A DNA stretch of 39,533 bases, taken from a virus (Duplodnaviria > Heunggongvirae > Uroviricota > Caudoviricetes). Within the stretch, counting starts at the first letter, position 1, and every line of letters begins with the position of its first letter. Positions 12,001 to 33,000 of this stretch are shown here, in pieces. Position numbers: made by a program. The stretch lies in the IMG/VR virus record IMGVR_UViG_2547132281_000008, positions 1-39,533 of that record. One strand, written 5' to 3'.

Positions 12001-15000
12001 AATCACGCATCCGCACTTCGGTGATAAACCGGTAAAGGTGTTCGCGATAAAGGTGAATATCAATGGCTAAATCAGCAGCAGAGCGCAAAGCCGCTCAGAG
12101 AGCCAGACAAGCTGCATCCGGTGTACGTAAGCTGGAGATTGTGCTTGATGCTCAGGAAATTGAAATGCTGGAGCGTAACTGTGCCACTCGTCGCCCCGGG
12201 CGTGCACCTTACGAATTTGGTGAGTATATCGCGTTACTGATCCGCCAGGATGATGTACGCGTGCGCGGGCGTATAAAATCGATCAGCAGAAAACGTTGCG
12301 GTAAGTGCGGCGAGAGAGTTCCTGTGAATTCATGCCCGTGTAATGGTGACTCGCAATGCTGGGTGACTAAAGGCTGGCATGAAACGAAATTAATAGTGTG
12401 ACATGTCACGAAGGTGTTATGCCAAAAATACGCTACGACCTTGAAGATATGAGAGATAACTCAGCAAATTTTCCGAAAGAGGTTAAATTTCTCATGCATA
12501 AGTATGGTTGCGCCAGGAGGGATATAGTTATCGACAGTCACCACCCTTGCGGCGAGGATGTAATTTTCATTCGCGGTAAATGGGAAGGGTATCTTGACGA
12601 GAGTTTTTACGATGAATTTGATGGACTTTGAATACTGCCGCCAACTATGGCGGCTTTATTTTGCATGGTACTATTACCATAACGGTAACAATTACCAGGG
12701 TGGTTATTATGCCTGCTGAACCTAAAACCTATAAACGCAAATCAACGCAATTTAAGCCGCTCACAGCAATGCAGGAGGCTTATTGCCAGTCATACATCAA
12801 AACGCCTGAAAACCAGACTCAGGCAGCGATTAACGCAGGATTCTCCCCAAATACAGCGGCAGTTAAAGCCAGCGTCATGATGCGCGATGAACGCATTCAA
12901 AAACGGATTGCCGAGTTGATGGAAGAGCGCAACAAACGAATGCGCGTCAGTGCTGATTACGTTCTCATGCGCCTGGTGGAGATCGACCAGATGGACGTGA
13001 TTGATATCCTCAACGACGATGGGAGTCTTAAGCCAATCCGTGAGTGGCCGAAAATATGGCGCACTACGCTTAGCGGCTTTGATCTGTCATCGACCATCAT
13101 GAACATGAACGAGGACTCGATAGAGACAATCCTCCAAAAAATTAAATGGCCTGACAAGGTGAAGAACCTAGAACTGATTGGTAAGCACGTCGACGTCAAC
13201 GCATTTAAAGAACGCCTGGATGTTAATGTGAATGTGACAATTGCTGATCGCATAGCGGCAGCCAGGAAGCGACTCAAAGAACGTCAGGATGGTAATCAGT
13301 GACAGATACAGCGTTATCTCCTGAAGAGCAGTTGATCGAGGATATTGCAGGGTTCACTCACGATCCGCTTGGCTATGCCCTCTATGCGTTCCCGTGGGGG
13401 GAAGAGGGGACTGAACTGGCACATGCTACCGGCCCACGTCAGTGGCAGGCCGATGCGTTCCGAGAGATACGTGACCACCTGCAGAATCCAGAGACGCGCT
13501 ATCAGCCGCTTATGCTGGCACGTGCTTCGGGTCACGGTATTGGTAAATCCGCATTCATCTCAATGCTGATCAACTGGGGCATGTCCACTTGCGAGGATTG
13601 TAAGGTCGTGGTAACCGCCAACACCGACAACCAGCTACGAACGAAGACCTGGCCGGAAATTATCAAGTGGTCGAACCTTGCTATCACGAAAGACTGGTTT
13701 ACCTGTACCGCTACCGCGATGTATAGCAATGATCCTGGACACGACAAGCGGTGGCGAGCTGACGCAATCCCCTGGTCTGAGCACAACACTGAGGCATTCG
13801 CCGGACTACACAACGAGCGCAAACGCATCATCGTGGTATTCGATGAAGCGTCGAACATTGCGGATCTGGTGTGGGAAGTTGCCGAGGGTGCGCTTACGGA
13901 CGAAGACACTGAGATTATTTGGGTGGCGTTCGGAAACCCGACGCGTAATACCGGACGTTTCCGCGAATGTTTCCGCAAATATAAACACCGCTGGAAAACT
14001 GCGCAGATTGACAGCCGGACGGTGGAAGGCACTAACAAACAGCAGTTGCAGAAATGGGTTGATGACTACGGGGAAGACAGCGACTTCGTTAAAATCCGTG
14101 TGCGCGGCATATTCCCGGATGCATCTGAATTGCAGTTTATCCCTACCGGACTTACTGACGAGGCAATGAAACGGGTGGTCACCGCTGCGCAGGTTGCACA
14201 TGCTCCGGTGATAATCGGCGTTGACCCGGCATACTCAGGCGTTGATGACGCGGTGATATACCTGCGGCAGGGGCTGCACAGTAAGGTGCTATGGACTGGT
14301 AACAAGACCACCGACGATCTGATTATGGCGAAGCGTATCGCTGACTTTGAAGACCAGTACCAGGCTGACGCGGTGTTCATCGACTTCGGTTACGGAACCG
14401 GTCTGAAGTCAATCGGTGACGGATGGGGTCGTACATGGCAACTTGTTCCGTTCGGTGGCGCGTCTACTGACCCGCAGATGCTCAACAAGCGTGGGGAGAT
14501 GTTCAATTCATGCAAGACATGGCTGAGGCTGGGCGGCATACTGGATGACCAGGAAACAGCAGACGACCTGTCGGCGGCAGAGTACAAAGTTCGTGTGGAC
14601 GGTAAAATCGTTATCGAACCGAAGGAAGATATCAAAGAGCGTCTTGGGCGTTCGCCGGGTAAAGGCGATGCGCTACTGCTGACGTTTGCGTTCCCTGTGT
14701 CGAAGCGTCTGCGAATTCCTGGGCAGCAGAACCAGCAAGGCAAGGCCATCACAGATTATGACCCGTATGCTTAATCCGCTGGTGGGGATAATGTCGTTGA
14801 TATCCTCTGATGAGGATAAAACAAAGCCAGCTCATCGGCTGGCTGTTTGTGACATGTCACGGTGTTATTGCTCGCTTAGCTTCTGCTTCAGCAAGTAACC
14901 TTCGAGCATCCAGATTTTGTTTACAGCATTCTGCCGGGCAATCTTCCGACCAATTTCTGCATCAAAGTTTTCCGGGCTTGCACAGGCGCTCTCTCCGGTG

Positions 15001-30000: not shown

Positions 30001-33000
30001 CTATCAAGGGGCTGATGGGAAACTTGGTGCTCTTAACCGTACTATTGCTTTTAATGCAGACGGTAAATCGAATTTCCTCTCTGTTGAGTCCAGAACAAAA
30101 GCCACTCGTGATTATGCATTGAGTCAATTGCAAGAGGCATTTGAAGCAGTTGATCCTCGCTTTTTTGGCCTGTTTGAAGATGAAGCTGGCGTGCGTGACC
30201 TGGTATATGAAATGCGAGGGCAAAATACTGGCAATGCTAAAGCAAGAAAAGGTGCTAAGGCGTGGAGAGAAGTGACAGATCTACTGCGCCGCCGGTTTAA
30301 TGATGCTGGTGGGGACATTGGCTATCTCGAAAACTGGGGGATCCCTCAACATCATTCTATGGAAAAGGTTGGGGCGGTATCAAAGGATAAGTGGGTTAGC
30401 GATGTTATAGGTAAGCTGGATCGCAAATATTATATCCGAGCCGATGGACAACTGATGAACGATGCCGAGTTGTCTGCATTTCTTGGAGAGGCTTATAACA
30501 CGATCGCTACTGGTGGGCTGAATAAGCTTACTGATACCGGAATGCGAATTTCCGGCGCACGTGCTAACCGTGGTAATGCATCACGACAGATACATTTCAA
30601 AGATGCAGATTCCTATCTGCAATATCAGCAACTTTATGGCGATCGTTCTCTATGGGAAATCATGGTCGCTCACCTGGAAGGTATCAGTAAAGATATTGCA
30701 CTGGTGGAAACATATGGCCCAAACCCCGATCATGTTTTCCGCTCTCTTCTTGATCAGGTGAAGGCAGAAACGGCAACAGCTAACCCGAGTAAAACCGGTA
30801 AAGTCGAGCGGCTGGCGAACAACACAGAGAATCTGTACAACTTTATTTCCGGAAAGACACAGCCTGTAGCGAATCCGCACATCGCGCGATGGTCTGACAA
30901 TATCCGCAACTGGCTGGTTGCCAGCAGACTCGGATCCGCGTTGCTGTCATCGTTCTCTGATCTTGGAACCATGTATCTGTCTGCGAAGGTTACCAACCTT
31001 CCAATGAACCAGTTATTCCGCAACCAGCTTGAAGCTATGGACCCAACGAACCGTACAGAACTTGCGCGGGCGCGCCGCGCTGGTCTGGCGATGGAATCTC
31101 TACTTGGCAGCGTTAACCGCTGGGCGATGGATAATATGGGGCCGTCTGTGTCTCGTTGGGCGGCAACGGCGGTAATGCGTGCCAGTGGGCTTACAGCATG
31201 GTCAGATGCGCACAAGCGCGCCTATGGCGTAACTATGATGGGAAGCCTGGGAGAAGTAGTGTCACGGACACCAGACCTTCGTAGCCTCGATGACTCTGAT
31301 TTTCGTATCCTTAAAAGCAAAGGGATTACTGACACAGACTGGAGCGTATGGAAGCTGGCGCAACAGGAGGACTGGGGGAACGGTAATAATACGATGCTGA
31401 CACCGGAAAGCATTATGCGTATCCCTGATTCAGCAGTTAAACATCTTGGTGAGCCTGAACGCGTGAAATTTGAGGCAATGCGTAAACTGCTCGGTGCCGT
31501 AACTGAAGAAGTTGATATGGCTGTTATTACACCGGGAGCACGTGAGCAACTGATAACCGGTTCTGGTATTCAGCGTGGAACATGGAAGGGGGAATTAACG
31601 AGAAGTGTTTTCCTGTTTAAATCGTTCCCTATCTCGGTTGTTATGCGTCACTGGTCACGCGCTATGGGTATGCCGTCTGCTGGTGGGCGTGCGGCATATA
31701 TTGCGACGTTTATTGCCAGTACGACCATTCTTGGCGCTTTGTCGCAGCAACTTAACGACCTTGCGTCTGGTCGTAATCCTCGAGAGATGACAGGAGAAGA
31801 TGCCGCAAAATTCTGGCTTGGTGCTCTACTGAAAGGTGGTGGTCTTGGCCTTTACGGTGACTTTTTATTGTCAGATCACACTAGGTACGGAAGCGGCGCG
31901 CTGGCGTCGATGCTTGGCCCGGTAGCTGGTCTGGTTGATGACGTAGTGAAGATTGCTCAGGGCATACCGTTAAATGCTGTGGAAGGGAAGAGTGATCAGA
32001 CTGGTGGTGATCTGGTGAAGCTGGGGAAAGGTTTGATGCCAGGTGCGAATCTCTGGTACTTGAAGGCGGCTCTCGATCATATGATCTTTAACCAGATGCA
32101 GGAGTATTTTTCACCAGGCTATTTGCGTAAAATGGAGCAACGTTCGAAGAAAGAGTTTAATCAGACATACTGGTGGCGACCGCAGGATGTCACTCCGCAA
32201 TAAGGATGAGAAATGATTGCTTTTATTCTTGTTGTGTTTGCGCTTATTGCACTTGGCGTTATGAACCGTAAATGTATCATTGGTGATGGTGAATTTGCTG
32301 TTGCAGTTGTTTTGATATTATCTGGTGTAGCAGGGTACATAGGTTTGTCATAACGTGAGCGTGACATGTCACAGGCCGCTTTCGCGGCCTTTAAATTTAC
32401 CGGGTTTGTTTTCGTAATTGTTCGGCACAATAGTCGAGATGTGTTTGCAGATCCCGCATAGACATCTGTGAGCTGGTGACGTAGTTAATCAGTGCAGTCA
32501 GTTCGGCAAGTGGGACATCGACATTAAATCCATCCTTATCGAGATCCCGGAGTAATTTCATCAAGTGCGATCCCTCCACCAGTGACCTGACGCCTCCCGG
32601 CGTGTGAATCCTTTCGGTAAATCCGTCTTCCAGTGGATAGTGATACTGCTGCATCTTATCTTCTCCATGCAATAACTGTATATTTATACAGTAGCAAATA
32701 ATTTGTTTGCTATCCAGCACGTTTTGCGAATCACCTGAAAGGTAATATCTGTTCGTATTTATGGGTTATCTATCCATATGTGGTTTTTCAGGTAATAGAA
32801 TAACCGGATATGCGGCGCAACGGGTGCTGCGACTATCTGGAGATTTAACATGACGGTCTCAACCGAAGTTGACCACAACGAATACACAGGTAACGGCGTT
32901 ACGACATCATTTCCTTATACCTTTAGGGTTTTCAATAAATCTGATCTGGTAGTGCAGGTGATTGACCCTGACGAGAATATCACTGTGCTGGCTCTTGATA

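Follow-up and report, generated by a model that had tools for sequence, protein, structure and literature searches.

Short palindromes at gene-block borders in a Uetakevirus genome as probable DNA sites of a predicted phage ribbon-helix-helix protein

What reads a 12-bp palindrome that recurs at the borders between blocks of genes in a temperate phage? The question is raised by the IMG/VR virus record IMGVR_UViG_2547132281_000008, all 39,533 nucleotides of which were analysed (hereafter the window) and which represents a phiV10/epsilon15-like temperate podophage of the genus Uetakevirus. A preliminary description, made from the sequence alone, had pointed to three exact copies of the palindrome GTGACATGTCAC as more than chance would produce, and the count bears this out: there are exactly three copies, at 12398-12409, 14849-14860 and 32361-32372, for a mean chance expectation of 0.01, and none of 100 dinucleotide-preserving shuffles reached three. 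The full unit common to the copies is 14 nt long, TGTGACATGTCACG in copies 1 and 2 and, in copy 3, the reverse complement of this. We propose, with a probability of about 0.7, that the three palindromes serve as cognate sites on the DNA for a predicted ribbon-helix-helix (RHH) protein encoded by the open reading frame (ORF) at 12063-12401, which belongs to the family of epsilon15 gp49 and ends within the first site. The features concerned are the following.

12063-12401, plus strand: gene for the proposed site-binding protein (112 aa, PHROG 536)
12397-12410: site 1, TGTGACATGTCACG, whose core palindrome (12398-12409) covers the TGA stop (12399-12401) of this gp49-family gene
14848-14861: site 2, TGTGACATGTCACG, flanked on one side by the bidirectional terminator that follows terL and on the other by the stop (14865-14867) of a convergent minus-strand gene
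32360-32373: site 3, CGTGACATGTCACA, which is the 14-mer in the opposite orientation, with the stop of the ORF at 32213-32353 on one side and a terminator on the other
33286-33297: GTGACCCGTCAC, a fourth match, to the looser pattern GTGAC-NN-GTCAC only, within the tailspike gene

The fourth match has flanking bases of the kind described below for true sites, and is probably fortuitous on sequence grounds because no copy is conserved in the homologous segment of epsilon15; phiV10 and ZX5 have no homologous segment.

The evidence that carries the proposal is the association of the site with one gene family across phages that otherwise have little in common. The product of ORF 12063-12401 is a homologue of epsilon15 gp49, phiV10 p55 and N15 gp46, and by tblastn the family extends to 152 phage records that differ widely in type. 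The Pectobacterium myophage ZF40, with a homologue 66% identical, has exactly three copies of GTGACATGTCAC, one of them 3 nt past the stop of the homologue. N15 and phiKO2, whose homologues are 35-37% identical, carry three copies each of GTGACTGGTCAC/GTGACCAGTCAC, and one site overlaps the TGA of the homologue exactly as in the window. The Vibrio phage K233 has three GTGAC-NN-GTCAC sites with the centres GC, AC and AC, and in the Pantoea phage AH07 the homologue has GTGACCTGTCAC at its stop codon, with one additional copy besides. In a sample of 50 gene-bearing prophage loci from different Enterobacterales species (965 kb), GTGAC-NN-GTCAC matched 66 times against 0.92 expected, and a site lay at the gene's own stop in 29 of the 50 loci, at an offset of -1 or +7. 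The arrangement of the half-sites is equally specific. Across 61 gene-bearing loci (1.36 Mb), inverted half-sites with a 2-bp spacer were found 93 times against about 1.3 expected, spacers of 0, 1 and 3-9 bp gave 0-4 occurrences each, and everted and direct arrangements gave 0-5 each, near background. The reverse test leads to the same gene, as 45 of 120 IMG/VR stretches that contain the 14-mer encode the protein in the fetched piece, mostly 0-21 nt away, and in lambda and P22 neither the gp49-family gene nor the site was found. By all of these comparisons the 14-bp dyad is enriched only in genomes that encode a gp49-family protein. The site is real, is under selection, and is tied both statistically and physically to the gp49 family across unrelated phages, and the suggestion in the preliminary description of a binding site for a phage protein gains support from a site that travels with one gene family whose members are predicted to be RHH proteins.

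A separate observation concerns the Yersinia phage vB_YenM_42.18, in which an 872-aa protein annotated as 'chromosome partition protein Smc' is encoded at 8621-11239, just downstream of the gp49-family gene, and fits Ppl, one of the defence models of PADLOC, at E 4e-28. A copy of GTGACATGTCAC lies at 11708 in this phage, about 470 bp past the 'Smc' gene.

Among close relatives the palindrome is found at the same three places in phiV10 and ZX5, and epsilon15 has exactly three exact copies at three homologous places, in DNA that is much more diverged and with different flanks; the search in related phages put forward as a check thus gave copies at equivalent places in all three. The copy at the place of site 1 is exact in epsilon15 and ZX5 and has one mismatch in phiV10 (GTGACATGTTAC). 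Site 2 is kept at the homologous place in phiV10, ZX5, epsilon15 and the prophage loci L091, L093, L094 and L097, and site 3 in phiV10, ZX5 and epsilon15 despite different flanking genes. In the IMG/VR close relatives, copy 1 is exact in 75 of 80 and copy 2 in about 50 of 60, the remainder being single-base variants. The phiV10 RefSeq record NC_007804.2 is linearised within the palindrome (...GTGTGA at one end and CATGTTAC... at the other), directly after the p55 stop, and because it was opened there copy 1 is invisible in the linear record. The palindrome sites carry no annotation in the records of epsilon15, phiV10, N15 and phiKO2.

The comparison of relatives also bears on another reading of the palindrome, namely as a linker for modular recombination or a packaging or processing signal, both of which had been raised in the preliminary description. 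Close relatives do differ in the genes that flank sites 1 and 3, with palindrome and terminator unchanged, and the phage encodes RecE/RecT-like recombination genes. However, the apparent breakpoint after copy 1 turns out to be an internal deletion of a small ORF in phiV10 and ZX5, with no exchange at the palindrome itself. This ORF (PHROG 1541), whose ATG starts 9 nt past site 1, is intact in the window and in about 30 of 80 IMG/VR relatives; in phiV10, ZX5 and the other relatives only an 8-codon remnant is left, with the distance of 9 nt from the palindrome to the ATG unchanged. Moreover, the site lies within conserved coding sequence in other phages, and 12-14 bp is very short for homology-driven exchange. 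As for packaging, the site follows one gene family across phages with unrelated packaging systems, the pair being present in N15, with its annotated 12-nt cohesive ends, in a P2-like Yersinia phage and in these podophages. A packaging signal is therefore unlikely, and the linker or signal reading as a whole is scarcely credible.

The protein itself supports the proposal at the level of a structural model. Its PHROG 536 label is 'transcriptional regulator'; no Pfam or NCBIfam family covers the product of ORF 12063-12401, and some members of the gp49 family have weak matches to Pfam RHH_5 and RepB-RCR_reg. The family is small, forming about 201 clusters at 50% identity in a set of 1.84 billion representatives, and every source lists it as hypothetical. 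A diverse alignment shows a conserved basic N-terminal helix (xRKxxQRxR), a conserved G-[IV]-x3-E-[VI]-x-L segment, two conserved helices, and a conserved C-terminal CxxCGxxLP...GC...C cluster, which corresponds to C79, C82, C91 and C99 of a Cys-rich knuckle in the window protein. With this alignment AlphaFold2 gave a model with a predicted local distance difference test score (pLDDT) of 92.8, with helices at 5-19, 30-42 and 52-74 followed by the knuckle; an earlier model from a shallow alignment was poor (pLDDT 64), and the fold search made with it is meaningless. The protein thus models confidently as a basic helix, an RHH core and a Cys-rich knuckle. The best structural match of the model was MatP bound to its site matS, and a Foldseek search with the model of pLDDT 92.8 returned no match.

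Such a fold would be consistent with the kind of site observed, as RHH repressors (Arc, Mnt, CopG, the ParD/TacA antitoxins, AmrZ) likewise have short dyad-symmetric DNA targets. Their sites are at promoters, however, whereas the phage dyads are at gene 3' ends, near terminators or in genes, and the gp49-family protein differs from them in its extra N-terminal basic helix and C-terminal Cys cluster. A toxin-antitoxin reading of the fold was dropped in view of neighbour genes that are not conserved between phages, and a role as a component of a defence system in view of the lack of any PADLOC match for the gp49-family protein. The C-terminal half, a long helix followed by CxxCGxxLP...FxGxxxC, also has a likeness to the DksA/TraR group of C4 zinc-finger proteins; in a profile search of the PDB it aligned with F-plasmid TraR (E 0.025) and YbiI (E 0.034). 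Zf-dksA_traR was absent among the best 25 of the 43 Pfam families matched at E up to 1, and there were no TraR/DksA structures among the matches listed in the structure searches. The N-terminal helix of TraR enters the secondary channel of RNA polymerase; the long helix of the gp49 family could hardly do so, because it would also be helix B of the RHH core. The zinc-finger resemblance to TraR and YbiI is taken as a lead and not a finding.

The anatomy of the site suggests that it is read as double-stranded DNA. Statistics were taken from 83 distinct sites, all retrieved with a search pattern that prescribes the arms GTGAC and GTCAC. Of the 83, 62 have AT at the centre, and AC, GT, CT, TG, CA, GC, GG and CC are also seen. 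The base at -1 is a pyrimidine in 80 sites and the base at +1 a purine in 81, and this preference gives the consensus dyad YGTGAC-NN-GTCACR. Flank combinations (T..G 27, C..G 22, T..A 15, C..A 15) match an independent choice on the two sides; the non-pairing combination C..A was seen 15 times for about 14 expected, and non-pairing flanks are thus not avoided. This is relevant to an RNA-level reading, in which GUGACAUGUCAC would form a small transcript hairpin, shortly ahead of terminators or ribosome-binding sites, that is read by a protein or an RNase, for example by the arginine-rich N-terminus of the same ORF, and that would modulate termination, processing or translation of the next cistron. 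A terminator hairpin often follows a site directly, or a ribosome-binding site follows it after 3-12 nt, the N-terminal AERKAAQRARQ resembles an arginine-rich motif, and two of the three N15 sites share their orientation relative to transcription. On the other hand, no compensatory changes in the arms occur among the 83 distinct sites, the flanks follow a pyrimidine/purine rule for each half-site, and the hairpin is weak and inconsistent in RNA folds, being present in one of five local minimum-free-energy folds. In addition, a single homologous position in Pantoea prophages can have either an AC or a GT centre, which are mutual reverse complements, site 2 comes after the stem of the plus-strand terminator, and the third site of N15 and phiKO2 has the opposite orientation inside repA. 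Taken together, the independence of the flanks, the lack of covariation in the arms and the weak hairpin favour recognition of double-stranded DNA by a symmetric dimer, and make an RNA element improbable. Selection on the nucleotides themselves is indicated by eight phages in which the site lies within the 3' part of a cII-like gene, in the codons R-D-M-S, since the 12-mer is the only long invariant run of these genes and wobble positions nearby vary. In the proposed mode of binding, a dimer of the RHH protein would recognise the 14-bp dyad with each subunit reading one YGTGAC half-site, and the central 2 bp would go unread.

The half-sites are those of a known chromosomal system, that of MatP, which organises the Ter macrodomain in E. 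coli and its relatives. The matS site is GTGAC[AG]N[CT]GTCAC, with the consensus GTGACATTGTCAC (PMC3603311, PMC8669397), and shares with the phage dyad the inverted half-sites GTGAC and GTCAC. Both systems have few dispersed sites rather than promoter operators, and the conservation of the phage half-site from E. coli phages to Vibrio phages is a further likeness. The differences are also clear. The phage spacer is 2 bp (12-bp core), whereas that of matS is 3 bp (13 bp); in the 1.36 Mb of gene-bearing loci the 3-bp spacing occurred twice, against 93 occurrences of the 2-bp spacing, and the window has no 13-mer. The gp49-family protein, at 112 aa, lacks the N-terminal four-helix bundle and C-terminal coiled coil with which MatP tetramerises and contacts its partner ZapB, and ends in the Cys-rich knuckle instead. 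Unlike MatP it is phage-encoded, and its own gene usually has one site on the stop codon. The sequence similarity to MatP falls short of significance: hhalign gave E 0.16, BLASTP found no match, and the hidden Markov model of the family scored MatP at 5.6 bits, a score equalled or exceeded by 49 of 3000 shuffles, and CopG at 6.7 bits. The likeness to MatP, so far as sequence comparison goes, is one of DNA half-site and general fold, and common descent is not demonstrated.

Two readings build on this likeness. In the first, the host MatP itself would bind the sites, which would imitate matS and link the DNA of the phage or prophage to the host Ter system, as might be suggested by the identity of the half-sites and by the identified hosts, all of which fall in the MatP-bearing clade. 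This is very improbable, given the strictly 2-bp spacer, with the 3-bp spacing at background in the same loci, and the co-occurrence and overlap of the sites with a phage gene for a predicted RHH protein. Half-sites 1 bp closer would also be rotated by about 36 degrees, which a rigid RHH dimer would be unlikely to tolerate. Prophages, furthermore, avoid true matS: Bobay et al. found none in 500 prophages (PMC3603311), and the phage sites described here would have gone uncounted in that survey because its pattern was 13 bp long.

In the second, the protein and site would be the same pair as in our proposal and the output would be architectural, a private MatP/matS-like system orthogonal to that of the host, in which the protein bridges or loops the few sites on phage DNA, or unloads or excludes the host condensin MukBEF from phage DNA in replication, in the way that MatP does at matS. 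By analogy this may be so, and we consider it unlikely without dismissing it. The half-sites are identical to those of matS, and the identified hosts of gene-bearing phages are all Enterobacterales, Vibrio or Aeromonas, the clade in which MatP and MukBEF occur. Each genome has few sites, with no consistent relation to promoters and some of them within genes. A site at the 3' end of the binder's own gene also recalls centromere-type arrangements such as P1 parS and F sopC. True matS is avoided in prophages (PMC3603311), for which reason the shifted spacing would keep the phage and host systems apart. The lack of established homology to MatP, the missing interaction domains with a knuckle in their place, and the spacer of strictly 2 rather than 3 bp argue against such an output. 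In a more specific form, which by the same analogy is more doubtful still, the protein would be a miniature MatP-like RHH protein that reads matS half-sites set 1 bp closer, without cross-talk with host MatP, and the 2-4 sites per genome would organise replicating phage DNA or exclude MukBEF. The suggestion that temperate phages and plasmid-prophages of Enterobacterales, Vibrio and Aeromonas have such a counterpart would be equally doubtful.

Partition systems provide another comparison, as the SopB partition sites of N15 and phiKO2 are also few dispersed palindromes in genomes that have the present site, one of them also in repA. Their sequence (GTGCGACCACGGTCGCAC) and positions are unlike those of GTGAC-NN-GTCAC, and the palindrome was not identified with them for the difference in sequence. 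The repA gene of these linear plasmid-prophages carries GTGACTGGTCAC, at 33237 in N15; in phiKO2 the site is separated by 240 bp from an annotated SopB-type site (GTGCGACCACGGTCGCAT), the two being at 14390 and 14632, and N15 and phiKO2 thus have two distinct dispersed palindrome systems in the same genomes.

What the bound protein would do in our proposal is suggested by the surroundings of the sites, which include these features.

12419-12631, plus strand: small ORF (70 aa, PHROG 1541), directly after site 1
12635-12654, plus strand: terminator-like hairpin at the end of the early-right region
14825-14844: bidirectional terminator hairpin that adjoins site 2 at 4 nt, annotated in phiV10
32373-32390, plus strand: terminator hairpin that directly abuts site 3, annotated in phiV10 and epsilon15

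Each of the three sites marks the 3' border of a rightward unit, and these units are the early-right region, terS-terL and the virion operon. The first of them closes with the gp49-family gene, site 1, an optional small ORF and a terminator, in that order, followed by repressor-operator-like dyads and terS. At the end of terS-terL the terminator precedes site 2, and at the end of the virion operon, whose last small ORF (32213-32353) ends just before the site, site 3 precedes the terminator. The borders at sites 2 and 3 face convergent minus-strand genes. The preliminary description had placed each copy within about 30 bp of an intrinsic terminator, which holds for copies 2 (4 nt) and 3 (abutting) but fails for copy 1, whose nearest terminator-like hairpin, at 12635-12654, is 225 nt downstream; the corresponding gap is about 40 nt in phiV10 and ZX5 and 22 nt in epsilon15, in which the 186-bp small ORF is deleted or absent. 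The placement of the copies at module boundaries was roughly right for all three by gene content, with the last early-region gene on one side of copy 1 and the terminase genes on the other, terL and a convergent gene plus one tRNA-Arg around copy 2, and around copy 3 the virion operon on one side and on the other a convergent gene that has a LexA box.

Our tentatively preferred output, for which we would give somewhat less than even odds, is a DNA-bound barrier or insulator at unit borders. The RHH protein would be made at the end of the early-right operon and would then occupy the 3' borders of the early-right, terS-terL and virion units. As an obstacle on the DNA there, it would reinforce the neighbouring terminators and shield the units both against read-through and against the two convergent minus-strand genes. 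This is suggested by the position of sites 2 and 3 at 0-4 nt from terminators and by the relatives, in which a strict terminator stands within 40 nt of 25 of the 88 sites, compared with a background of about 5%, and in which most sites are just past a stop codon or just ahead of a ribosome-binding site.

Several observations weigh against the barrier or against the proposal as a whole. About 70% of the sites in relatives have no strict terminator nearby, many lie inside genes (the cII-like genes among them) or immediately ahead of a ribosome-binding site, and some are deep within genes (repA of N15 and phiKO2, gp08 of ZF40), so that a barrier role cannot be general. Classical RHH regulators bind promoters, while the window sites have no promoter-like sequence, a consensus scan for sigma-70-like promoters having come up empty at all three, and it would be unusual for an operator to lie at its own gene's 3' end. 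A few gene-bearing loci have no site within 10 kb; an altered cognate motif was looked for in loci without a canonical site, and none emerged. Finally, one-mismatch variants are found in viable relatives (copy 1 of phiV10 and copy 2 of about 10 of 60 relatives), which indicates that no single site is essential.

Some further candidates for the function of the palindrome were set aside. In epsilon15, GTGACA followed by 17 nt and TAAATT after gp49 looked promoter-like, as in a late-promoter or Q-like arrangement, and this idea was dropped because the -10 element is absent in the window, phiV10 and ZX5. The repressor operators annotated in epsilon15 are a different motif, ATTACC-N4-5-GGTAAT, which the window has elsewhere. 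The 'ice' element within lambda cII has no positional homology to the sites in cII-like genes, since the site-bearing cII-like proteins have a C-terminal extension without a lambda counterpart.

Other features of the neighbourhood can be described briefly. Two imperfect dyads of the ATTACC-N4-5-GGTAAT type lie at 12672-12708, between the terminator after site 1 and the likely terS start (ATG 12710), and others at 6132-6148 and 10607-10622; at the places that correspond to 12635-12654 and 12672-12708, the epsilon15 record has an annotated terminator and repressor site. A terS call that begins at TTG 12628, like the one in phiV10, is probably placed too far upstream. Beyond site 3, a perfect LexA box (CTGTATATTTATACAG) at 32676-32691 is located just upstream of a minus-strand ORF that ends at 32397, has its likely start at ATG 32657, belongs to PHROG 450 and shows weak similarity to anti-repressors. 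By sequence the box and ORF fit an SOS-controlled antirepressor, and the 'SOS gene' noted beside copy 3 in the preliminary description gains support from them; in place of the 'tRNA island' noted beside copy 2 there is a single tRNA-Arg (anticodon TCT) on the minus strand at 15420-15496. This tRNA overlaps the plus-strand ORF 15239-15490, annotated as p04 in phiV10, which may for that reason be spurious. Farther to the left, at 7803-7943, there are five direct copies of CCAAAAACGGGA (one of them CCGAAAACGGGA), the last three 24 bp apart, and since they lie inside the replication-initiator gene (7541-8356) they are probably iterons of the phage origin, as in lambda O.

In the searched literature no description of the protein and site pair was found; neither the 12-mer nor a phage MatP-like/matS-like system was encountered, and the Uetakevirus papers found are silent on it. 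An RHH protein with a dyad site is of a known type, and it is the placement of the sites, on the stop codon of the protein's gene and at the ends of units, that is unusual and the likeness to matS that is unexpected. The analysis assigns a likely DNA target to a family annotated only as 'hypothetical' or 'transcriptional regulator' even in well-studied phages, of which epsilon15 gp49, phiV10 p55, N15 gp46, phiKO2 gp45 and ZF40 gp22 are members, and the rule YGTGAC-NN-GTCACR can be looked for in any genome. If the transcriptional output is true, these phages would exemplify a factor that acts, bound to DNA, where operons end at their 3' borders and not at promoters. If instead the resemblance to matS is functional, the phages would have a chromosome-organising system of their own, kept separate from that of the host by a change of 1 bp in spacing, which would bear on how phage DNA copes with the condensins of the host and on the reason for the avoidance of true matS by prophages (PMC3603311).

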